Sequence record: NC_027387.1
DNA length: 38,810 bases
Origin: Escherichia phage CICC 80001
Direction: 5' to 3' (one strand)
The notes beneath the pieces were generated by a model that saw only the letters and a list, made by a program, of their open reading frames with translations, was not told the origin of the DNA and made no database searches. Positions within the stretch are counted from its first letter, which is position 1. Each line of letters begins with the position of its first letter. The position numbers and the translations under genes are program-made. Positions 1 to 38,810 of this stretch are shown here, one piece after another.

Positions 1-1254
1 CGTGAAGCTGACCGTTCCAAATCTGAGGCCAATCGTGCTAAAGGTTATGCTGATAGTATGATAGAAAGTGTTGAGACAGCCAAAGGTCACGCCGACCGTT
101 CCAATAAGGAAGCTAATCGTGCTCGTGATGAGGCTGACCGTGCTGCTGGAGAAGTCACTAAGGCCGCTGCACATGTTGTCACCGCTGAGGAACATGCTGA
201 CCGGGCTGACACTGAGGCTAACCGTGCGAAGAGTGAAGCTGACCGCGCGAAGATTGAGGCCGATAAGTTGGGTAACACGAACGCACTTGCTGGGACCATT
301 GACAGAATTGAGGATAATGATGTCCACTTCAAGGGTAAAATAGGCGCGCGCTCTTTGAATCTACATAATGATGCAAAAGGTGAGGGTACACAGCCAGTTG
401 ACCAAGTGTGGAACCAATGGCGCGCACAGGACTCTAAGGTTACTGCATGGGAACAGTGGATTCGGGCTGGAAGTAAGCGCATGGACTACTATGTTTTCAC
501 TAGTACGGACCCGGAAACTTGGCCTGAAGGTCGCTCCAATAGTAAAGGTAATCATACATTTTATGGGGACGTTCTATTTGCTGGTGGTAACGTGGAGATG
601 CACGGCAACCTTTATGTTAATGCAGTCGATTCTAAAAATACCGTTGCCCTTACAAATGTGGGTGCTAGCTTTAGGGCAAAAACACAAGGTGGCGGATGGA
701 GCCAGTGGACAGGAAGTCAATCTCCAGACGTGCAGCATGACATTGAAGGGCAGGGTGATACAAGCTATCTCCTTGAGCGAGCTACAATTTGGGGCAAAGA
801 ACACCTGTACGGTAAATGCTTGTACAACAATGGTACTGGTGCAAACTTCTTTATCCGTCACTACCTTCGCAATGCTTACTTTGATGTGTGTTCGGATGGT
901 TCCCTTAAAAGCTCTACGGGGTGGTACATTCCATCAGATGGTAACTTATTCATCAAGAAGTATGACTCGTACATTGATACTTGGGTCAACAGACGCTTGG
1001 GAGAACATGCCTACACTAAAAGTGAAGTGAACAGCCTAATTAGTAGTAACAAACAAGGGGCGAATAGTGTCTATTGGGGTCCGTCGCGATCCGTTGCAAG
1101 GAAATACTATAGGTCGCAAGAAATCCTAGCTGGGGGTGGCGAGGCTATGACTGGCATGGTGTTTGATGAACAAAACATAGTGAGTGGTGTGCGTTTCTGT
1201 GCTCTGTGGATAACCTTCCACGATGGTACAAAGCGTATCGTTGCATCACAATAA
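1..1254 (+). CDS. 17: Tail fibre protein gp17, C-terminal part (5' end runs off the window start; continues from the N-terminal part at 38238..38810 if the genome is circularly permuted)
   Basis: Frame-1 ORF open from nt 1; EADR/EANR coiled-coil repeats then a globular tip; architecture parallels T7 gp17 (EADKL..NxLAGxIDxxDxxxVxxKG) but the distal domain is diverged; followed by the holin gene as in T7. Confidence 0.85.
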   Translation, partial: READRSKSEANRAKGYADSMIESVETAKGHADRSNKEANRARDEADRAAGEVTKAAAHVVTAEEHADRADTEANRAKSEADRAKIEADKLGNTNALAGTIDRIEDNDVHFKGKIGARSLNLHNDAKGEGTQPVDQVWNQWRAQDSKVTAWEQWIRAGSKRMDYYVFTSTDPETWPEGRSNSKGNHTFYGDVLFAGGNVEMHGNLYVNAVDSKNTVALTNVGASFRAKTQGGGWSQWTGSQSPDVQHDIEGQGDTSYLLERATIWGKEHLYGKCLYNNGTGANFFIRHYLRNAYFDVCSDGSLKSSTGWYIPSDGNLFIKKYDSYIDTWVNRRLGEHAYTKSEVNSLISSNKQGANSVYWGPSRSVARKYYRSQEILAGGGEAMTGMVFDEQNIVSGVRFCALWITFHDGTKRIVASQ

Positions 1255-1267
1255 AGGAGACAATAAA

Positions 1268-1597
1268 ATGCGTAAGTTCTACAACTGGAAGTACAGCATT
1301 ACTTATGCTTATGGACAACCAACGTATGACGTGATTGACAAAGAAGGTAACGACTGGTATCGCCTGATGTGTGAACTTGAAGTTCGCCCTGAGAAGTGGG
1401 TCGTTGGGGTTAACCCCAACGGCTCAGTCTCTTGGTGGTCTGATGGTTCCGTAGATGGTACATATGCGCCGCCTGAAGGTGGCATGGTGATTGTTTGTGA
1501 AGAGTTCCTACCTGATTATGGACAACGCTGGGTGGACTCTGAGGACCGCTGGGAGTTGATTTCAGAAGCGACTAAAGCACCTAAGGAGGGTAGTTAA
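1268..1597 (+). CDS. Hypothetical protein (110 aa) between tail fibre and holin; possible tail-fibre accessory or assembly protein
   Basis: ATG at 1268 preceded by AAGGAG; stop directly abuts holin start (TAAATG at 1595-1600); no counterpart at this position in T7 as I recall it. Confidence 0.6.
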   Translation: MRKFYNWKYSITYAYGQPTYDVIDKEGNDWYRLMCELEVRPEKWVVGVNPNGSVSWWSDGSVDGTYAPPEGGMVIVCEEFLPDYGQRWVDSEDRWELISEATKAPKEGS

Positions 1598-4423: not shown

Positions 4424-4867
4424 ATGATAAACAAGAAGAAGTATGTTGTCGATAAGGATACTGGCTGCTGGAACTTTAAGGGCTGTAAGACTAAGACTGG
4501 TTATGGTCGTATTCGTGTAAATGGAGTCCATTGGATGGCCCACAGGTATTCCCTGAGTTGTCATCTAGGCAGACCGATAGCTGACGGAATGGTTGTGATG
4601 CACCTGTGTGATAACCCCTCATGTGTTAACCCTGAGCACCTTAAGGAAGGGACTCAGAAGGAAAACATAGAGGACTGCATCTCAAAAGGTCGAGCAACTA
4701 AGGCCACAGGCAAACGCGATGCGTCGAAGAGAGACCCTAGCGAGGAACGTAAGGCTATAGTGATTCGTAGATACCATAAAGGCTGGACCGCAACGTCCAT
4801 AGCGAGATACCATAAGCTCTCTGTGGCGTGGGTCAAGAGGGCCATTGAGGAGTACCTAAGTGATTGA
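4424..4867 (+). CDS. HNH homing-endonuclease-like protein
   Basis: 147 aa; GCWNFKGC...GYGRIRVNGVHWMAHRYSL...MHLCDNPSCVNPEHL core (His-Asn-His with Cys pairs) plus basic C-terminal tail; AAGGAGG RBS; same architecture as T7 gp2.8/gp7.7-type proteins but at a different locus. Confidence 0.85.
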   Translation: MINKKKYVVDKDTGCWNFKGCKTKTGYGRIRVNGVHWMAHRYSLSCHLGRPIADGMVVMHLCDNPSCVNPEHLKEGTQKENIEDCISKGRATKATGKRDASKRDPSEERKAIVIRRYHKGWTATSIARYHKLSVAWVKRAIEEYLSD

Positions 4868-5181: not shown

Positions 5182-5422
5182 GGTCTTCCTGACCGACTGA
5201 GGGCTCACCGAGGGATTCAGCGGTATGATTACATCACACCACTTCATCCCTATAGAGTCAAGTCCTAAGGTATACCCATAAAGAGCCTCTAATGGTCTAT
5301 CCGTAAGGTCTATACCTAAAGATAGGCCATCCTATCAGTGGAACCTAAAGAGGGTCTTAGAGAGGGCCTGAGGAGTTCCTAGAGGGTCCTTTAAAATATA
5401 CCATAAAAATCTGAGTGACTAT

Positions 5423-5955: not shown

Positions 5956-5992
5956 TTGACAACACGAAGTAACATGCAGTAAGATACACAGC
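5956..5992 (+). promoter_or_regulatory. Host sigma70 early promoter A2
   Basis: TTGACA, 18-bp spacer, TAAGAT; matches T7 A2. Confidence 0.8.
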
Positions 5993-6062
5993 GTCAACAC
6001 GGTAGCACGGTGTCTTCTAGGTGACTTAAGCGCACCACGGCACATAAGGTGAAACAAAACGG

Positions 6063-6098
6063 TTGACAACATGCAGTAAACACGGTACGATGTACCAC
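6063..6098 (+). promoter_or_regulatory. Host sigma70 early promoter A3
   Basis: TTGACA, 17-bp spacer, TACGAT; matches T7 A3. Confidence 0.8.
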
Positions 6099-6209
6099 AA
6101 GCAGTAAGGGTGTAGGGATAGGAACCGAGAAACCTGCCCGTGACCCGCCAAGGATAAGGCACTAGCCATGAGTCGAATTCGGTCACTCATCGCATAAAAG
6201 AATAACAGG

Positions 6210-6245
6210 TTGACAGCCTCCTTTAAAAGCTGTAAGATGTACCAC
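6210..6245 (+). promoter_or_regulatory. Additional consensus-like sigma70 promoter (fourth in the tandem early array)
   Basis: TTGACA, 17-bp spacer, TAAGAT, then GTACCAC as downstream of A3. Confidence 0.6.
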
Positions 6246-6425
6246 GAAATGACGGAACAGTGAGTCACCACACTGAAAGGTGATGCGGTCTGACGAAACC
6301 TGACCAAAGACGCTCTTTAACAATCTGGTAAACGGCTCTTGAGTGTACACACGTAGCGGATAACCCAAGGGTATCGCAAGGTGCCCTTTATGATATCCAC
6401 TAACAACACTATGAGGTAACACACA

Positions 6426-6776
6426 ATGGCTATGTCTAACATGACTTACAACAACGTTTTTGATCACGCTTACGAAATGCTGAAAGAAAACACCCGTTAT
6501 GATGACATCCGTGACACTGATGACCTGCACGATGCAGTACACATGGCAGCCGATAGCGCCGTTCCGCACTATTACAGCGACGTTTTCAGCGTAATGGCAA
6601 GCGAGGGCATTGACCTTGAGTTTGAGGATTCTGGTCTGATGCCGGACACCAAGGACGTAATCCGTATCCTGCAAGCGCGTATCTATGAGCAATTAACGAT
6701 TGACCTCTGGGAAGACACTGAGGACTTACTGAACGAGTACCTTGAGGAAGTCGAAGAGTACGAGGAGGAAGAGTAA
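6426..6776 (+). CDS. 0.3: Ocr (gp0.3) DNA-mimic anti-restriction protein
   Basis: 116 aa [22 protein letters not shown]..., highly acidic, near-identical to T7 Ocr. Confidence 0.97.
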
Positions 6777-6928
6777 TGGCTAACAACGTACAATACGGTC
6801 TGACCGCTCAAACTGTACTGTTCTATAGTGACATGGTGCGCTGTGGCTTTGATTGGTCGCTCGCAATGGCACACCTTAAGGAACTGTACGAAAACAACAA
6901 GGCAATAGCCTTGAAGTCTGCTGAGTGA
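6776..6928 (+). CDS. 0.4: gp0.4 homologue
   Basis: 50 aa [32 protein letters not shown]..., matches T7 gp0.4; TAATG overlap with 0.3. Confidence 0.8.
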   Translation: MANNVQYGLTAQTVLFYSDMVRCGFDWSLAMAHLKELYENNKAIALKSAE

Positions 6929-6978
6929 TAGGCTCAAGGTCGCTCAATATGAGTGGCCTTTATGATTATCACTTTAAC
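6929..6978 (+). promoter_or_regulatory. RNase III-type hairpin (extra copy of the R0.5-like site)
   Basis: GGCTCAAGGTCGCTCAATATGAGTGGCCTTTATGATTATCACTTTAAC, paralogous to the site at 7246..7300. Confidence 0.5.
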
Positions 6979-6997
6979 ATGTAATAGGACTAACACC

Positions 6998-7198
6998 ATG
7001 AGTAAACTTCTGGCAACATCTAAAATCAAAGGTCAATGCACTGTAACACTGCGAGAGTATGATCACGGGGCAATGGGTAGCACCTACGTTGTGCGATACG
7101 GTAAACAAGTCACCCAATGGGTGAACGAGGTTTTGGCACAAGAAGAATACCAAGCCTGCGTGATACACCAAGCAACATGTGCAGGCTGGAATGACTGA
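6998..7198 (+). CDS. Hypothetical early protein (66 aa), no T7 counterpart at this position
   Basis: ATG at 6998 with AGGA 8 nt upstream; ORF MSKLLATSKIKGQCTVTLREYDHG...; between genes 0.4 and 0.5, flanked by two RNase III-like hairpins; listed ORF 6953..7198 trimmed to the Met outside the hairpin. Confidence 0.55.
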   Translation: MSKLLATSKIKGQCTVTLREYDHGAMGSTYVVRYGKQVTQWVNEVLAQEEYQACVIHQATCAGWND

Positions 7199-7245
7199 TG
7201 GCGCTATTTGTACGCACTGGATACTAACCTTCGAGTCCACCCAGT

Positions 7246-7300
7246 GATAAACTCAAGGTCGCTCCTAGCGAGTGGCCTTTATGATTATCACTTTACTTAC
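7246..7300 (+). promoter_or_regulatory. RNase III processing site (R0.5-equivalent)
   Basis: AAACTCAAGGTCGCTCCTAGCGAGTGGCCTTTATGATTATCACTTTAC, matches T7 R0.5. Confidence 0.6.
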
Positions 7301-7307
7301 GGGAATA

Positions 7308-7442
7308 ATGTATATGCTTACTATCGGTCTACTCACCGCTCTGGGTCTAGCTGTAGGCGCATCCTTTGGGAAGTCCTTAGGCGTAGCTGTAGGCGCTTAC
7401 TTGGTCGCTTGTATCATTACGGGAGCACTGCGCAAATGCTGA
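7308..7442 (+). CDS. 0.5: gp0.5 small membrane protein homologue
   Basis: 44 aa MYMLTIGLLTALGLAVGASFGK..., matches T7 gp0.5. Confidence 0.7.
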   Translation: MYMLTIGLLTALGLAVGASFGKSLGVAVGAYLVACIITGALRKC

Positions 7443-7573
7443 AACACTACGTTATGCCTATCCACACCAAGAACGGTGCTACAGTTTGCACACCTGATGG
7501 CTTCGCAATGAAACAACGAATCGAACGCCTTAAGCGTGAACTGCGCACCAATCGCAAGCTCAACAATATCTAA
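7436..7573 (+). CDS. 0.6: gp0.6 homologue
   Basis: 45 aa MLKHYVMPIHTKNGATVCTPDGFAMKQRIERLKRELR..., matches T7 gp0.6A N-terminus. Confidence 0.7.
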   Translation: MLKHYVMPIHTKNGATVCTPDGFAMKQRIERLKRELRTNRKLNNI

Positions 7574-7591
7574 TCACATTAACACTGGAGA

Positions 7592-8680
7592 ATGCACAAA
7601 GTGAACGCTATCGACATCATGAACACTATCGACGCAATCAAAGCACTGCCAATCTGTGAACTTGATAAGCGTCAAGGTATGCTCATTGATTTGCTGGTTG
7701 AGATGGTCAACAGCGAAACGTGTGACGGTGAGATCACCAAGCTGGACAAGCCGCTTGAATTCCAAGACTGGTGGACTACCTTAAAGTGCTTGACTGCGGA
7801 CTCTGGATTTATGATGCTTGGTAATGGGCACTTCTCGGCTGCTTATAGCCACCCGCTGCTGCCTAACAGGGTGATTAAGGTGGGCTTTAAGAAAGAGGAC
7901 TCAGGCGCTGCGTATACCGCATTCTGCCGCATGTATCAGGGTCGCGCTGGTATCCCTAACGTCTACGATGTACAGCGTCACGCTGGATGCTATACGGTGG
8001 TATTGGATGCACTGAATGATTGCGAGCGTTTCGACAACGATGAGCATTATAAATACGCTGAGATTGCAAGCGACATCATTGACTACAAATCCAATGAGCA
8101 CGATATGTTAACTGGGTGGGATGGCGAGTTCGTCGAGACTTGTAAGCTAATCCGCAAGTTCTTTGAGGGCATCGCTTCGTTCGACATGCACAGCGGGAAC
8201 ATCATGTTCAGCGACGATGATACGCCGTTCATTACCGACCCTGTATCGTTCTCGCAGCAGAAAGACGGTGGCGCATTCAGTATTGACCCTGAGGAACTCA
8301 TCAAGGAAGTCGAGGAGGTCGCACACCAGAGAGCAATCGACCGCGCTAAGGAACGTAAAGCACGTCATGTGGGTCGAGTGGAGGCACGTAAAGTAAAGCG
8401 CCGTAACCGTAAGGCACGTAAAGCACACCAAGAGAAGCACAAGCGAATGGTTGCTACGTGGCGTATGGATGAGCGTCAAGAACGACGTAACCATGAGGTA
8501 GCTGTAGATGTGCTGGGAAGGACCAATAACGCTATGCTCTGGGTTAACATGTCCGCTGGGGACTTTAAGGCTCTTGAGGAACGAATTGCGGCGCACTGGT
8601 TTCAAGCTGACCGAATGGCTATCGCTAACGGTCTTCCGCTCAACATCGACAAGCAACTTGACGCAATGCTAATGGGCTGA
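7592..8680 (+). CDS. 0.7: gp0.7 serine/threonine protein kinase and host transcription shutoff protein
   Basis: 362-aa ORF, high similarity to T7 gp0.7; true start may be GTG at 7601, which aligns with the T7 N-terminus. Confidence 0.93.
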
Positions 8681-11720: not shown

Positions 11721-11972
11721 ATGGGCCGTTTATATAGTGGGAACCTGAATGTCTTCAAGGCTGCTTGCAACAGGCTCTACCAGTTGGACCTTGCTGTTAT
11801 AGTTGTTGAGAAGGAAGGTTCACCAAACATAAAGGCGACCATGTACCTTCGGATTGAAGACCGTACTGGTCGCATAGTTGTTCAGGAGGAGATTCACCAC
11901 TGCGACGAAGACGTTCTGTACAATATGGGAACCGCCTGGCTGAACCGTATGTACGACCAGTTGAAGCACTAG
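11721..11972 (+). CDS. 1.2: gp1.2 host dGTPase inhibitor
   Basis: 83 aa MGRLYSGNL...DEDVLYNMGTAWLNRMYDQLKH, matches T7 gp1.2; listed ORF 11637..11972 trimmed to the conserved Met. Confidence 0.85.
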   Translation: MGRLYSGNLNVFKAACNRLYQLDLAVIVVEKEGSPNIKATMYLRIEDRTGRIVVQEEIHHCDEDVLYNMGTAWLNRMYDQLKH

Positions 11973-12056: not shown

Positions 12057-13078
12057 ATGATGAACATTAAGACCAACCCATTTAAAGCCGTGTCTTTCGT
12101 AGAGTCTGCCATTAAGAAGGCTCTGGATAACGCTGGGTATCTTATCGCCGACATCAAGTATGATGGTGTACGTGGGAACATCTGCGTAGACAATACCGCT
12201 AACAGTTGCTGGCTCTCTCGTGTATCTAAAACGATTCCGGCACTGGAGCACCTAAACGGATTCGATGCACGCTGGAAGCGCCTTCTGAATGATGACCGTT
12301 GCTTCTACAAAGATGGCTTTATGCTTGATGTAGAACTCATGGTCAAGGGAGTAGACTTCAACACTGGGTCTGGCCTACTGCGCACCAAATGGACTGACAC
12401 GAAGAACCAAGAGTTCCACGAAGAGTTATTCGTTGAACCAGTCCGTAAGAAAGACAAGGTTCCCTTTAAGCTGCACACTGGACACCTTCACGTCAAACTG
12501 TACGCTATCATCCCTCTGCACATCGTGGAGTCTGGAGAAGACTGCGATGTCATGACGTTACTCATGCAGGAACACGTTAAGAACATGCTGCCTCTGCTAC
12601 AGGAATACTTCCCTGAAATCGAATGGCAAGCGGCTGAGTCTTACGAGTCTACGACATGGTTGAACTACAGCAACTGTACGAGAAGAAGCGTGAAGAAGGA
12701 CATGAGGGTCTCATTGTGAAAGACCCGATGTGTATCTATAAGCGCGGTAAGAAGTCCGGCTGGTGGAAACTTAAGCCAGAGAACGAAGCAGACGGCATCA
12801 TTCAGGGTCTTGTATGGGGAACCGAAGGTTTAGCGAATGAGGACAAAGTAATCGGATTTGAGGTGCTTCTTGAGAGTGGTCGTGTAGTTAACGCCACAAA
12901 CATCTCTCGCACCTTAATGGATGAATTTACAAACACAGTTAACATTGAAGGTGAAACATACTACAACGGGCACGCTTGCCAGATTGCGTACATGGAGGAA
13001 ACACCTGACGGCTCTCTGCGTCACCCATCGCTCGTAATGTTCCGTGGCACCGAGGATAACCCTCAAGAGAAAATGTAA
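12057..13078 (+). pseudogene. 1.3: ATP-dependent DNA ligase gene 1.3, split by a -1 frameshift near 12647/12648
   Basis: ORF 12057..12719 encodes the ligase N-terminal part (adenylation motif KYDGVRG); ORF 12656..13078 in the +1 frame encodes the C-terminal part (MVELQQLYE...HEGLIVKDP...RHPSLVMFRGTEDNPQEKM); one G missing relative to T7 ...TACGAGGTCTACGA... Confidence 0.75.
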
Positions 13079-13521: not shown

Positions 13522-14143
<622 letters not shown>

Positions 14144-14146
<3 letters not shown>

Positions 14147-18684: not shown

Positions 18685-20841
18685 ATGATCGTTTCTGACA
18701 TCGAAGCTAACGCCCTCTTAGAGAGCGTCACTAAGTTCCACTGCGGGGTTATCTACGACTACTCCACCGCTGAGTACGTAAGCTACCGTCCGAGTGACTT
18801 CGGTGCGTATCTGGATGCGCTGGAAGCCGAGGTTGCACGAGGCGGTCTTATTGTGTTCCACAACGGTCACAAGTATGACGTTCCCGCATTGACCAAACTG
18901 GCTAAGTTACAGCTTAACCGTGAGTTCCATCTACCCCGCGAGAATTGTATCGACACCCTTGTGTTGTCACGTTTGATTCACTCCAACCTGAAAGACACCG
19001 ATATGGGTCTGCTGCGTTCCGGTAAGTTGCCCGGTAAACGCTTTGGGTCTCACGCTTTGGAGGCGTGGGGTTATCGCTTAGGCGAAATGAAAGGTGAATA
19101 CAAGGATGACTTTAAGCGTATGCTTGAAGAGCAGGGTGAAGAATACGTTGATGGAATGGAGTGGTGGAACTTCAACGAAGAGATGATGGACTATAACGTT
19201 CAGGATGTTGTGGTCACTAAGGCTCTCCTTGAGAAGCTACTCTCTGATAAACATTACTTCCCTCCTGAGATTGACTTTACGGACGTAGGATACACTACGT
19301 TCTGGTCAGAATCCCTTGAGGCCGTTGACGTTGAACATCGCGCTGCATGGCTACTCGCTAAGCAAGAGCGCAATGGATTCCCGTTTGACACGAAAGCAAT
19401 CGAAGAGTTGTACGTAGAGTTAGCTGCTCGCCGCTCTGAGTTGCTCCGTAAACTTACCGAAACGTTCGGCTCATGGTATCAACCTAAGGGTGGCACCGAA
19501 ATGTTCTGCCATCCGAGGACTGGTAAGCCATTGCCTAAATACCCTCGCATTAAGACACCTAAAGTTGGTGGCATATTTAAGAAGCCTAAGAACAAGGCAC
19601 AGCGAGAAGGCCGTGAGCCTTGCGAACTTGACACCCGCGAGTACGTTGCTGGTGCCACATATACTCCGGTAGAGCACGTAGTGTTTAACCCTTCTTCCCG
19701 TGACCACATTCAGAAGAAACTTCAAGAGGCTGGATGGGTCCCGACTAAGTACACCGATAAAGGTGCACCTGTGGTGGACGATGAGGTCCTAGAGGTAGTA
19801 AAAGTAGATGACCCTGAGAAGCAAGCCGCTATCGACCTTATTAAAGAATACTTGATGATTCAGAAGAGAATCGGACAGTCTGCTGAGGGAGACAAGGCAT
19901 GGCTTCGTTACGTTGCTGAGGATGGTAAAATTCATGGTTCTGTTAACCCCAATGGTGCTGTTACTGGGCGCGCTACTCACGCTTTCCCTAACCTCGCACA
20001 GATACCCGGTGTCCGCTCTCCTTATGGTGATCGGTGCCGCGCTGCTTTTGGCGCTGAACATCACCTAGATGGACTCACAGGTAAGCCTTGGGTTCAGGCT
20101 GGTATAGACGCCTCAGGTCTGGAGTTGCGCTGCTTGGCACACTTCATGGCTCGCTTTGACAACGGTGAGTATGCTCACGAGATTCTCAATGGTGACATTC
20201 ACTGGAAGAATGCAATTGCTACTGACTTAGCACCAAACGTTGCCCGTGATAAACACAATAAGGAACACGACCTAATGCGAGATAACGCCAAGACGTTTAT
20301 CTATGGGTTCCTCTATGGTGCTGGAGATGAGAAGACTGGGCAGATTGTCGGTGCTGGTAAAGAGCGCGGTAAGGAACTCAAGAAGAAATTCCTTGAGAAC
20401 ACCCCTGCGATTGCGGCACTCCGAGAGTCTATCCAACAGACACTTGTTGAGTCCTCTCAGTGGGTAGCTGGTGAACAGCAAGTCAAGTGGAAACGTCGCT
20501 GGATTAAAGGTCTGGATGGTCGTAAGGTACACGTCCGTAGTCCTCACGCTGCCCTGAATACCCTACTGCAATCCGCTGGTGCGCTTATCTGCAAACTGTG
20601 GATTATCAAGACCGAAGAGATGCTCGTAGAGAAAGGCTTGAAGCATGGCTGGGATGGGGACTTTGCGTACATGGCTTGGGTACACGATGAAATCCAAGTC
20701 GGTTGCCGTACCGAAGAGATTGCTCAGTTGGTCATTGAGACCGCACAAGAAGCAATGCGCTGGGTTGGAGACCACTGGAACTTCCGGTGTCTTCTGGATA
20801 CCGAAGGTAAGATGGGTCCTAACTGGGCAGTATGTCACTAA
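18685..20841 (+). CDS. 5: gp5 DNA polymerase (family A, with 3'-5' exonuclease domain)
   Basis: 718 aa, near-identical to T7 gp5 except a roughly 14-aa insertion encoded around 20224..20280. Confidence 0.97.
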
Positions 20842-20860: not shown

Positions 20861-21160
20861 ATGGCTATGACAAAGAAATTTAAAGTGTCCTTCGACGTTA
20901 CCGCTAAGATGGTATCTGACGTTCAGGTAATCTTAGAGAAAGATATGCTGCACTTATGTAAGCAGGTTGGCTCCGGTGCGATTGTCCCCAATGGTAAACA
21001 GAAGGAAATGATTGTCCAGTTCCTGACACATGGCATGGAAGGCTTGATGACGTTCGTGGTACGTACAGCATTCCGTGAGGCAATCAAGGACATGCACGAA
21101 GAGTATGCCGATAAGGACTCCTTCAAACTCTCTCCTGCAACAGTACGGGAGGTGTTCTGA
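20861..21160 (+). CDS. 5.5: gp5.5 H-NS-binding protein
   Basis: 99 aa MAMTKKFKVSFDVTAKMVSDVQVILEKDMLHLCKQ..., near-identical to T7 gp5.5. Confidence 0.93.
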   Translation: MAMTKKFKVSFDVTAKMVSDVQVILEKDMLHLCKQVGSGAIVPNGKQKEMIVQFLTHGMEGLMTFVVRTAFREAIKDMHEEYADKDSFKLSPATVREVF

Positions 21161-21369
21161 TGTCTGACTATCTGAAAGTATTGCAAGCAATCAAAAGTTG
21201 CCCTAAGACTTTCCAGTCCAACTATGTACGGAACAACGCGAGCCTCGTAGCGGAGGCCGCTTCCCGTGGTCACATATCTTGCCTGACCACTAGTGGACGC
21301 AACGGTGGCGCTTGGGAAATTACAGCTTCCGGTACTCGCTTTCTGAAACGAATGGGAGGGTGTGTCTGA
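21160..21369 (+). CDS. 5.7: gp5.7 homologue
   Basis: 69 aa MSDYLKVLQAIKSCPKTFQSNYVRNNASLVAEAASRGH..., matches T7 gp5.7. Confidence 0.93.
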   Translation: MSDYLKVLQAIKSCPKTFQSNYVRNNASLVAEAASRGHISCLTTSGRNGGAWEITASGTRFLKRMGGCV

Positions 21370-21527
21370 TGGTTCGTGACACTGTAACAATTCCTCGTGA
21401 TGCGTGGAACGATATGCAGGGCTACATCGACTCTCTGGAACGTGAGAACGATAGCCTTAAGAACCAACTTATGGAAGCTGACGAGTACGTGGCTGAACTA
21501 GAGGAGAAACTTAATGGCACTTCTTGA
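21369..21527 (+). CDS. 5.9: gp5.9 RecBCD inhibitor homologue
   Basis: 52 aa MVRDTVTIPRDAWNDMQGYIDSLERENDSLKNQLMEADEYVAELEEKLNGTS, matches T7 gp5.9. Confidence 0.85.
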   Translation: MVRDTVTIPRDAWNDMQGYIDSLERENDSLKNQLMEADEYVAELEEKLNGTS

Positions 21528-38237: not shown

Positions 38238-38810
38238 ATGGCTAACGTAATTAAAACCGTTTTGACTTACCAGTTAGATGGCTCCACTCGTGATTTCAAT
38301 ATCCCGTTTGAGTATCTAGCCCGTAAGTTCGTAGTGGTAACTCTTATTGGTGTAGACCGCCGTGTTCTCACGTTAAATACAGATTATCGCTTTGCTACTC
38401 GTACTACTATCTCACTGACTAAGGCTTGGGGGCCAGCGGATGGCTATACTACCATCGAGTTACGTCGAGTAACCTCCACGACCGACCGCTTGGTTGACTT
38501 TACGGACGGCTCAATCCTCCGTGCGTATGACCTTAACGTTGCTCAGATTCAAACGATGCACGTAGCGGAGGAGGCTCGCGACCTAACTGCGGATACCATC
38601 GGTGTCAACAGTGATGGTCACTTGGATGCCCGTGGTCGTAAGATTGTGAACCTTGCGTTCGCTACCAGTGACTATGATGCTGTCCCTCTGAAACAGATTA
38701 AGGACCGTGAGTCCTCTGTGTGGAATGCTGTTACCAAAGCTGATGAACATGCTGACCGCTCTACTCGTGAAGCTAACCGCTCTCGTGATGAGGCTGACCG
38801 TGCTAAGCGT
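38238..38810 (+). CDS. 17: Tail fibre protein gp17, N-terminal part (3' end runs off the window; 191 complete codons)
   Basis: MANVIKTVLTYQLDGSTRDFNIPFEYLARKFVVVTLIGVDRRVLTLNTDYRFATRTT... matches the T7 gp17 tail-attachment domain, then diverges into EADR/EANR repeats. Confidence 0.95.
   Translation, partial: MANVIKTVLTYQLDGSTRDFNIPFEYLARKFVVVTLIGVDRRVLTLNTDYRFATRTTISLTKAWGPADGYTTIELRRVTSTTDRLVDFTDGSILRAYDLNVAQIQTMHVAEEARDLTADTIGVNSDGHLDARGRKIVNLAFATSDYDAVPLKQIKDRESSVWNAVTKADEHADRSTREANRSRDEADRAKR

Follow-up and report, generated by a model that had tools for sequence, protein, structure and literature searches.

A T7-like early operon with a gene 0.45 cassette in Escherichia phage CICC 80001

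Overview

The segment from position 6426 to 8680 of the 38,810-nt sequence analysed here (record NC_027387.1, taken at its full length and hereafter called the window) constitutes the early (class I) operon of a T7-like phage; the remaining genes listed in the original prediction belong to its class II host-takeover set. As an early anti-defence gene set it is ordinary, already known and standard for such a phage. The best explanation of the whole, to which we would give a probability of roughly 0.88 on the basis of homology and gene order, is a T7-type set of class I early and class II takeover genes that is mosaic with a cassette carrying gene 0.45.

The original prediction held that the anti-defence and host-takeover complement was intact and near-identical to that of T7. 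Its genes are indeed present and intact: all extend over their full length, uninterrupted by stop codons or frameshifts, Ocr starting at 6426, gp0.7 ending at 8680 and gp1.2 occupying 11721..11972. Their reading as a baseline takeover and anti-defence complement also appears sound, each gene being a full-length member of its T7 family in a syntenic position. Near-identity to T7 is correct for five of the seven proteins (Ocr, gp2, gp5.5, gp5.7 and gp5.9; 92-100%), generous for gp0.7 (86%) and wrong for gp1.2 (56%).

Genome and Closest Relatives

All T7 proteins were compared with the window by tblastn, together with global amino-acid alignments, PHROG and Pfam profile matches and, for Ocr and gp1.2, matches to PDB sequences. 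The 608-aa tail fibre gene is a single ORF that continues uninterrupted over the window junction; the window is therefore a complete, circularly permuted genome, in which T7 base 1 aligns with position 5422. The phage is T7-like, of the Teseptimavirus type, with DNA identity to T7 of about 90% over the whole window and 84-90% in the early region. Its nearest database relatives are Teseptimaviruses with 92-96% DNA identity, and no record in the collection compared is identical to the window. This phage represents a lineage separate from T7 and has a mosaic early operon. Scanned over its full length, the window gave no Rfam match and no tRNA.

The expression "intact complement" masks several nearby differences: the 0.6B region is missing, the DNA ligase gene is apparently split by a 1-nt deletion near position 12647 causing a frameshift, and several non-essential T7 genes are absent.

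Promoters and RNase III-type Hairpins

All features described below lie on the plus strand. Three strong sigma-70-type early promoters, assigned by position and consensus only, span 5956..6238 (5956-5985, 6063-6091 and 6210-6238) and would be the equivalents of A1, A2 and A3. Each agrees with 10 of 12 consensus positions (TTGACA, a spacer of 17-18 nt, TAAGAT or TACGAT), and their locations correspond to those of T7 A1-A3 once T7 base 1 is placed at window position 5422.

The RNase III-type pattern CAAGG..GTGNCCTTTATGAT has four matches where none is expected by chance. The R0.3 equivalent, upstream of gene 0.3 (6366..6394), was recognized by this pattern and folds at -20.5 kcal/mol (z = -2.95). 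Two further hairpins are located in a 71-nt direct repeat (6906-6976 and 7225-7295) whose copies are 80% identical and 319 nt apart. The right copy contains R0.5 (7254..7285), which combines the pattern with a stable fold and, over the hairpin, shows no difference from the T7 R0.5 sequence aligned with it. An additional hairpin in the left copy (6935..6966; -19 kcal/mol, z = -3.7) is the R0.45 equivalent; its aligned counterparts are T7 R0.5 and, in phiYeO3-12, the site that bears the annotation R0.45.

Genes of the Early Operon

Gene 0.3 (6426..6776, 116 aa) encodes the DNA mimic Ocr, identified by orthology with T7 Ocr (110/117 residues identical, 94.0%, in a global alignment) and by Pfam family PF08684, matched with 204.6 bits (cutoff 25) over all of profile positions 1-101 of 101; the protein also matches PDB entry 1S7Z (E = 1.3e-69). 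With 33 Asp and Glu residues against 6 Lys and Arg and a pI of 4.05, it is nearly as acidic as T7 Ocr (34 against 6), the acidic residues differing only in that the C-terminal tail has one Asp fewer. Ocr is known to act against BREX and to trigger PARIS, and its sensing by PARIS depends on Phe54 (PMC11842806, PMC9122126, PMC11464382, bioRxiv 10.1101/2023.04.06.535777). Phe54 is kept in the window, where its neighbours are changed conservatively (A51S and I53V).

Gene 0.4 (6776..6928, 50 aa) shares 45/51 residues with T7 gp0.4 (88%; phrog_7202, E = 2e-33), and we take its product, going by T7, to be an FtsZ inhibitor. Beyond the gene 0.45 cassette follow gene 0.5 (7308..7442), coding for a hydrophobic protein of 44 aa with 38/47 residues identical to T7 gp0.5 (81%; phrog_16572), and gene 0.6A (7436..7573, 45 aa), with 40/53 identical to T7 gp0.6A (75%). 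Gene 0.6A has no 0.6B extension: T7 positions 1770-2021 are without counterpart, and 32 nt stand in their place.

The last gene of the operon, gene 0.7 (7592..8680), encodes the protein kinase and host transcription shutoff protein, as assigned by T7 orthology and phrog_2828. Its start is ambiguous between an ATG at 7592 (362 aa) and a GTG at 7601 (359 aa), the latter matching the T7 N-terminus. The profile match (E = 4e-170) runs from residue 5 to 362 on positions 2-366 of 366, and thus takes in the kinase portion at the N-terminus as well as the shutoff portion at the C-terminus. An end-to-end alignment with the 359-aa T7 gp0.7 yields 312 identical residues (86%), the differences being concentrated towards the N-terminus and in the C-terminal half, which is basic. 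Neither Pfam nor the PDB holds a relative of gp0.7 onto which catalytic residues could be mapped, and NCBIfam has no match for gp0.4, gp0.45, gp0.5, gp0.6A or gp0.7.

Gene 0.45: Identity and Conservation

The ORF at 6998..7198 had been singled out as an extra early ORF that stands out from the T7 baseline. It does not: it is gene 0.45 of phages phiYeO3-12, phiSG-JL2 and 13a, and tblastn finds it in 158 phage records from at least 10 host genera at 80-98% amino-acid identity. The 66-aa product matches phrog_6500 over positions 1-66 of 66 (E = 5.4e-44) and aligns over all 66 residues with gp0.45 of phiYeO3-12, from which about 10 of the 66 differ; identity is 89% with the phiSG-JL2 protein and 69% with that of 13a. 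Upstream of the gene, a Shine-Dalgarno-like AGGA and its spacer are conserved with phiYeO3-12. The dN/dS ratio is 0.07-0.16 at a dS of about 0.45, and an AlphaFold2 model of the protein, with four beta-strands and one helix, reaches a pLDDT of 89.7. Because of these substitution ratios, the 158 records and the confidently predicted fold, we regard gene 0.45 as a real gene under purifying selection.

A wider family of 41 cluster representatives shows invariant Tyr34-Gly35, Ala47, His57 and Cys61. We considered a simple Cys4 or Cys3His zinc site involving Cys14, Cys54 and Cys61 and rejected it, since Cys14 and Cys54 are not constant among the close family members; the candidate ligands that never vary across the wide family are His57 and Cys61 alone. 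Gene 0.6 of phage T3, which is of equal length and also follows R0.5, was likewise discarded as a homologue, its translation being unrelated.

Searches for characterised relatives of gp0.45 were negative in Pfam and NCBIfam, in a profile search of PDB sequences and, for the predicted structure, in a Foldseek comparison with the PDB (no match at E <= 0.001), while Foldseek against predicted viral structures (BFVD) retrieved only uncharacterised small phage proteins. Our literature search found no functional study, the sole mention encountered being an entry in a BLAST table (PMC4925675).

Gene 0.45: Probable Origin of the Cassette and Possible Role

The cassette measures 319 bp and is bracketed by the duplicated RNase III-type hairpins (6935-6966 and 7254-7285); gene 0.45 adjoins a hairpin of this type in phiYeO3-12, 13a, HZ2R8 and Yanou as well. 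Because of the direct repeat and the variable position of the gene among phages, we propose that the hairpin and gene 0.45 were most probably gained or exchanged together by recombination between near-identical hairpin sequences.

As to its role, the gene 0.45 product is most likely a small early protein whose binding partner would be a host factor, and which would serve host takeover or counter-defence. A more detailed proposal, which we put forward tentatively, is that gene 0.45 represents a widespread family of uncharacterised early effectors, possibly inhibiting a conserved enterobacterial host factor or defence system, and that it is a self-contained cistron hopping between early-operon slots in T7-group phages, its flanking RNase III hairpins doubling as recombination sites.

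Could gene 0.45 instead be a dedicated counter-defence gene, so that the anti-defence complement of this phage would be larger than the T7 baseline? Such a role is compatible with our best explanation but is a stronger claim. It would suit the class I position of the gene in its own RNase III-bounded cistron, its patchy and accessory occurrence in variable slots among T7-group phages, and its proximity to Ocr or to an S-adenosylmethionine hydrolase (SAMase), in an accessory region of the type in which counter-defence genes cluster (bioRxiv 10.1101/2023.04.06.535777). However, gp0.45 resembles no characterised anti-defence protein, and a sequence search of the supplements of the same study did not find it among the 200 accessory genes screened there. 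Moreover, so high a degree of conservation between phages of different host genera is at least as consistent with a conserved housekeeping target as with a defence target that evolves fast. A dedicated counter-defence role is possible but doubtful in our view.

The gp1.2 Allele

Gene 1.2 (11721..11972, 83 aa) belongs to the dGTPase (Dgt) inhibitor family, as assigned from PF10922 and from alignments with T7 and 13a, and carries a 13a-type allele. Its product is 91.5% identical to that of 13a and 95.2% to that of IME390. The original prediction had named substantial divergence from T7 in protein alignments as evidence against itself; such divergence was found for gp1.2 alone, in which only 48/85 residues are identical to T7 (56%). 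The 13a-type allele forms a discrete group, in which some 20 records share at least 80% identity, while the next reach 63% at most.

This divergence bears on a different reading of the complement, in which it would be intact nominally only and 13a-type gp1.2, possibly with gp0.7, would have changed in function; gp1.2 might for instance escape PifA (F-plasmid) exclusion, target another dNTPase, or not inhibit Dgt at all. The residues of gp1.2 that contact Dgt have been described as R3, Y5, S6, G7, A10, F12, K13, Y28 and V65 (PMC9478638). Two of these nine are altered in the window (A10N and Y28V), and the central third of the protein (residues 28-42 and 51-58) is replaced relative to T7. Such changes, and the discreteness of the allele, speak for a shift in function, and because of the sequence changes the affinity for Dgt and the role of gp1.2 as an F-exclusion target could differ from those in T7. 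On the other hand, seven of the nine contacts are kept (R3, Y5, S6, G7, F12, K13 and V65), and the N-terminal GRLYSGNL, which reaches into the active site of Dgt, is the same as in T7. The Pfam match is also full-length (99.5 bits against a cutoff of 22, positions 1-82 of 85), PDB entries 2MDP and 7U65 are matched at E of about 1e-24, and the allele is maintained in many phages of E. coli, Yersinia and Salmonella. We thus consider a change of function unlikely, and gp1.2 has probably kept its function as a dGTPase inhibitor.

Other Class II Takeover Genes

The remaining takeover genes adhere closely to T7. Gene 2 (13952..14146), encoding the 64-aa host RNA polymerase inhibitor, has 61/64 residues identical (95%) and matches PF16857 with 92.9 bits. 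Its acidic strip and Arg56 are important for gp2, and both are conserved; the only three substitutions are W17R, L40V and A62V. Gene 5.5 (20861..21160, 99 aa), of the H-NS-binding family, shares 95/99 residues with its T7 counterpart (96%; phrog_1452, E = 1.6e-35), while the 69-aa product of gene 5.7 (21160..21369) is identical to that of T7 at all positions (69/69, 100%). Gene 5.9 (21369..21527, 52 aa) encodes the RecBCD inhibitor, with 48/52 residues identical (92%) and a PF25708 score of 32.1 bits (cutoff 24.5).

Proposed Course of Host Takeover

The gene activities in the window are all carried over from T7 by homology. Following the T7 scheme, host RNA polymerase would start at the A promoters and transcribe the phage DNA as it enters, and the early transcript would be cut at the hairpins by RNase III. 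Ocr is expected to mimic B-form DNA and titrate type I restriction and BREX methyltransferase complexes, and might itself be sensed by PARIS and similar systems. By the same analogy gp0.4 would block FtsZ and gp0.6 act on MreB, while gp0.7 would phosphorylate host proteins and, through its C-terminal part, shut off host transcription. Among the class II products, gp1.2 would enter the active site of Dgt with its N-terminus, host RNA polymerase would be inhibited by gp2 and gp5.7, gp5.5 would bind H-NS and gp5.9 would block RecBCD.

The idea that the ORF at 6998..7198 arose by chance or is non-coding spacer, the early region then being T7-like with a functionless 319-bp insertion, has in its favour the small size of the 66-aa product, its lack of a Pfam or NCBIfam family and the frequent absence of its annotation from database records, but is highly improbable and refuted by the conservation pattern, that is, by the dN/dS and dS values, the identity held over 158 records and at least 10 host genera, the Shine-Dalgarno-like site and spacer shared with phiYeO3-12, the confidence of the AlphaFold2 model and the invariant residues in 41 cluster representatives.

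Past correct annotation, a T7-type early operon mosaic with the gene 0.45 cassette has little significance in itself. Since the standard T7-group toolkit is present, the behaviour of the phage should be predictable from T7: we would expect Ocr-based resistance to type I restriction-modification and to BREX, and sensitivity to abortive-infection systems that sense Ocr or gp5.9, such as PARIS or retron Ec48. Predictions from T7 that concern Dgt and F exclusion call for caution because gp1.2 is a different allele. Gene 0.45, an uncharacterised early gene in 158 phage records, is a reasonable and low-cost subject for functional study.

Comparison with Known Phages

The window shares with T7 (NC_001604) the gene order and the families of genes 0.3 (Ocr), 0.4, 0.5, 0.6A, 0.7, 1, 1.1, 1.2, 2, 5.5, 5.7 and 5.9, and likewise has its A-type promoters and RNase III hairpins. 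It differs from T7 in the absence of genes 1.4, 2.8, 3.8, 5.3 and 7.7, in an internally shortened gene 1.7, and in the extra hairpin and gene 0.45 cassette, which T7 lacks.

The closest genomes are those of the Teseptimavirus Escherichia phages HZ2R8, IME390/PHB20 and 04922B, with 92-96% DNA identity in the early region. HZ2R8 agrees with the window in the order gene 0.4, hairpin, gene 0.45, and its gp0.45 is 98.5% identical to that of the window, while IME390 bears the same gp1.2 allele. The ligase gene disrupted in the window by the 1-nt deletion is intact in IME390 and others.

Gene 0.45 itself occupies different places in other phages. In phiYeO3-12 it follows the SAMase gene, and upstream of it stand the RNase III-type hairpin and ribosome-binding stretch also present in the window; in 13a it lies before gene 0.3, whereas in the window, an Ocr-encoding phage, it follows gene 0.4.

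Genome form and relatives

The window comprises the entire genome of a T7-like phage in circularly permuted form. Its tail-fibre gene starts at 38238, crosses the window junction and resumes from base 1 to 1254 (+ strand), and translation across the junction runs uninterrupted for 608 codons to one stop at the end; in a DNA alignment, base 1 of T7 (NC_001604) corresponds to position 5422. Comparison with the phage collection found no identical record. The nearest genomes are those of the Teseptimaviruses HZ2R8, 04922B, IME390/PHB20 and C5, with identities to the window of 92-96% across early-region DNA and about 91-93% when 25 kb are compared. For early-region DNA of T7 the figure is 84-90%; this phage is a relative of T7 and not T7 itself.

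Takeover genes compared with T7

The original prediction described a set of anti-defence and host-takeover genes that is intact and near-identical to that of T7. All annotated T7 proteins were translated and searched against the window, and global alignments were then made for the genes named in that prediction. Every one of them was found as an uninterrupted frame in T7 order. Profile searches concur with their being present and intact, with Pfam matches over the cutoff to ocr, T7-like_gp12, RNA_pol_inhib and Phage_T7_Gp5_9, and PHROGs matches to the ocr-like, kinase, dGTPase-inhibitor, RNA polymerase-inhibitor and gp5.5-like families. Near-identity holds for the DNA mimic Ocr (gene 0.3, 6426..6776; 110/117 residues identical to T7), gp2 (13952..14146; 61/64), gp5.5 (20861..21160; 95/99), gp5.7 (21160..21369; 69/69) and gp5.9 (21369..21527; 48/52). 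The term is generous for gp0.7 (7592..8680; 312/359, 86%) and does not apply to gp1.2 (11721..11972; 48/85), for which the alignment to T7, the very check proposed with the prediction, gives 56% identity, a divergence of the kind that was named there as refuting. Identity is 45/51 for gp0.4 (6776..6928), 38/47 for gp0.5 (7308..7442) and 40/53 for gp0.6A (7436..7573). The gene set is thus real, complete and well known, with nothing in it to surprise a specialist, and its initial interpretation was right in kind while overstated in degree.

Ocr retains its acidity (33 Asp+Glu, pI 4.05, against 34 Asp+Glu in T7), its C-terminal tail having one Asp fewer, and differs in global alignment by six substitutions (I23T, I38V, N44S, A51S, I53V and A98T). 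Phe54 is retained; the F54V change was reported to allow escape from PARIS and EcoR22I sensing (10.1101/2023.04.06.535777). The gp1.2 protein represents a discrete allele, 91.5% identical to that of phage 13a (EU734174) and 95.2% to that of IME390; about twenty records are at least 80% identical to it and the remainder at most 63%. Cryo-EM of gp1.2 bound to the E. coli dGTPase Dgt defined contacts at R3, Y5, S6, G7, A10, F12, K13, Y28 and V65 (PMC9478638). Since alignment to T7 shows seven of these nine kept (A10 is replaced by Asn and Y28 by Val) and the N-terminal segment entering the Dgt active site wholly unchanged, we would expect Dgt inhibition to be kept.

The gp0.7 protein aligns end to end with its T7 counterpart, with clusters of differences near residues 45-56 and, beyond residue 245, in a basic region; searches of Pfam and PDB found neither a family model nor a solved structure on which catalytic residues could be mapped. 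Gene 0.7 has two candidate start codons: ATG 7592 lies just 1 nt past GGAG, and GTG 7601, aligned with the first codon of the T7 gene, may be the correct one.

Other departures from T7

Around 7570..7601, 32 nt stand in place of T7 1770-2021, a segment of roughly 250 nt encoding the last part of 0.6A and all of the 0.6B frameshift extension, and gene 0.7 begins 18 nt past gene 0.6A. Searching T7 proteins by tblastn revealed no counterpart of genes 1.4, 2.8, 3.8, 5.3 and 7.7 at their T7 positions; the sole match for 2.8 and 7.7 was an HNH ORF after gene 19. This homing-endonuclease ORF (4424..4867, +, 147 aa; phrog_6254, E = 3e-60) shows distant similarity to both gp2.8 and gp7.7 of T7, and lies between genes 19 and 19.5, where T7 has no such ORF. 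Gene 1.7, of the nucleotide kinase family (13527..13832, +), has lost roughly 80 internal aa compared with T7 gp1.7, its Cys-rich start and C-terminal 100 aa being kept. The DNA polymerase (18685..20841, +, 718 aa) is about 96% identical to T7 gp5, with a 14-aa insertion near codon 516.

DNA ligase gene 1.3 (12057..13078) is split into overlapping frames, 12057..12719 and 12656..13078, through the loss of one G relative to T7 (GAGG to GAG near 12647). The ligase is intact in the closest relatives, IME390 and PHB20, which have 182 nt where the window has 181. Such a frameshift could be genuine and inactivating, or else an error of sequencing. Identity to T7 is far lower in the C-terminal part (76.5%) than in the N-terminal part (96.4%).

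The N-terminal 186 aa of the tail fibre are 79% identical to T7 gp17 and the rest about 35%, over a short stretch only; the receptor-binding part therefore differs from that of T7. Between this gene and holin gene 17.5 lies an ORF (1223..1597, +, 124 aa) that matches no PHROG family and was found by tblastn in 54 phage records at up to about 81% identity, annotated, where at all, as hypothetical.

Gene 0.45 and its product

The frame at 6998..7198 (66 aa) is a real gene. Set against the homologues of Yanou, a Cedecea phage, and of Yersinia phage phiYeO3-12, it shows synonymous divergence of about 0.45 and dN/dS of 0.07 and 0.16. Along its entire length the product matches phrog_6500, a family with no assigned function (E = 5e-44). 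Detected by tblastn in 158 phage records (Klebsiella 72, Escherichia 23, Yersinia 13, Salmonella 10, others), mostly at 80-98% amino-acid identity, and annotated as gene 0.45 in phiYeO3-12, phiSG-JL2 and 13a, it is an accessory early gene that is common among T7-group phages and missing from T7 itself. The suggestion that this extra ORF stands out is consequently not borne out, as it is neither an oddity nor peculiar to this genome.

The AlphaFold2 model of gp0.45, built with 15 homologues, is confident (pLDDT 89.7) and consists of four beta-strands and then one helix; Foldseek returned no PDB match at E <= 0.001, and the related viral models are all uncharacterised. A profile search of 1.84 billion representatives yielded a family of 41 proteins, stand-alone and of 60-120 aa except for three long multi-stretch proteins (357-1700 aa). 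Only Tyr34, Gly35, Ala47, His57 and Cys61 are invariant in an alignment of 23 distant members. His57 and Cys61, separated by one turn where the C-terminal helix ends, could possibly serve in a metal-mediated dimer or as a reactive site; a classical zinc site is unlikely, given that Cys14 and Cys54 are variable. We found no functional study of gp0.45 in the literature, and the screen of 200 accessory genes in 10.1101/2023.04.06.535777 does not include its gene. Based on its class I position, own cistron, accessory distribution and strong conservation, we would tentatively regard it as a small early protein binding a conserved host factor.

Hairpins and putative early cassettes

Gene 0.45 lies between the two copies (6906-6976 and 7225-7295) of a 71-nt direct repeat, which are 80% identical and spaced 319 nt apart. 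Both copies hold a conserved RNase III-type hairpin, CAAGG...GTGGCCTTTATGAT, with folds of -19 and -17.7 kcal/mol (z = -3.7 and -3.1). The window has four hairpins of this kind (6366, 6935, 7254 and 11444), against 0 expected by chance. The downstream copy of the repeat matches T7 R0.5, and the upstream copy, with its AGGACTAACACC-ATG leader, matches the site annotated R0.45 in phiYeO3-12.

The position of the gene differs between phages: it follows gene 0.4 in HZ2R8, as in the window, the S-adenosylmethionine hydrolase gene in phiYeO3-12 and another small ORF in Yanou, and lies upstream of gene 0.3 in 13a. An RNase III-type hairpin adjoins it in all five. Most simply, this would reflect an exchange of early cistrons as cassettes through recombination between these nearly identical hairpins. 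Additionally, annotated gene 0.7 of 13a (EU734174, 1768..1902) has only 45 codons, the kinase appearing largely deleted, which together with the placement of gene 0.45 in that phage is another sign of a highly plastic early operon.
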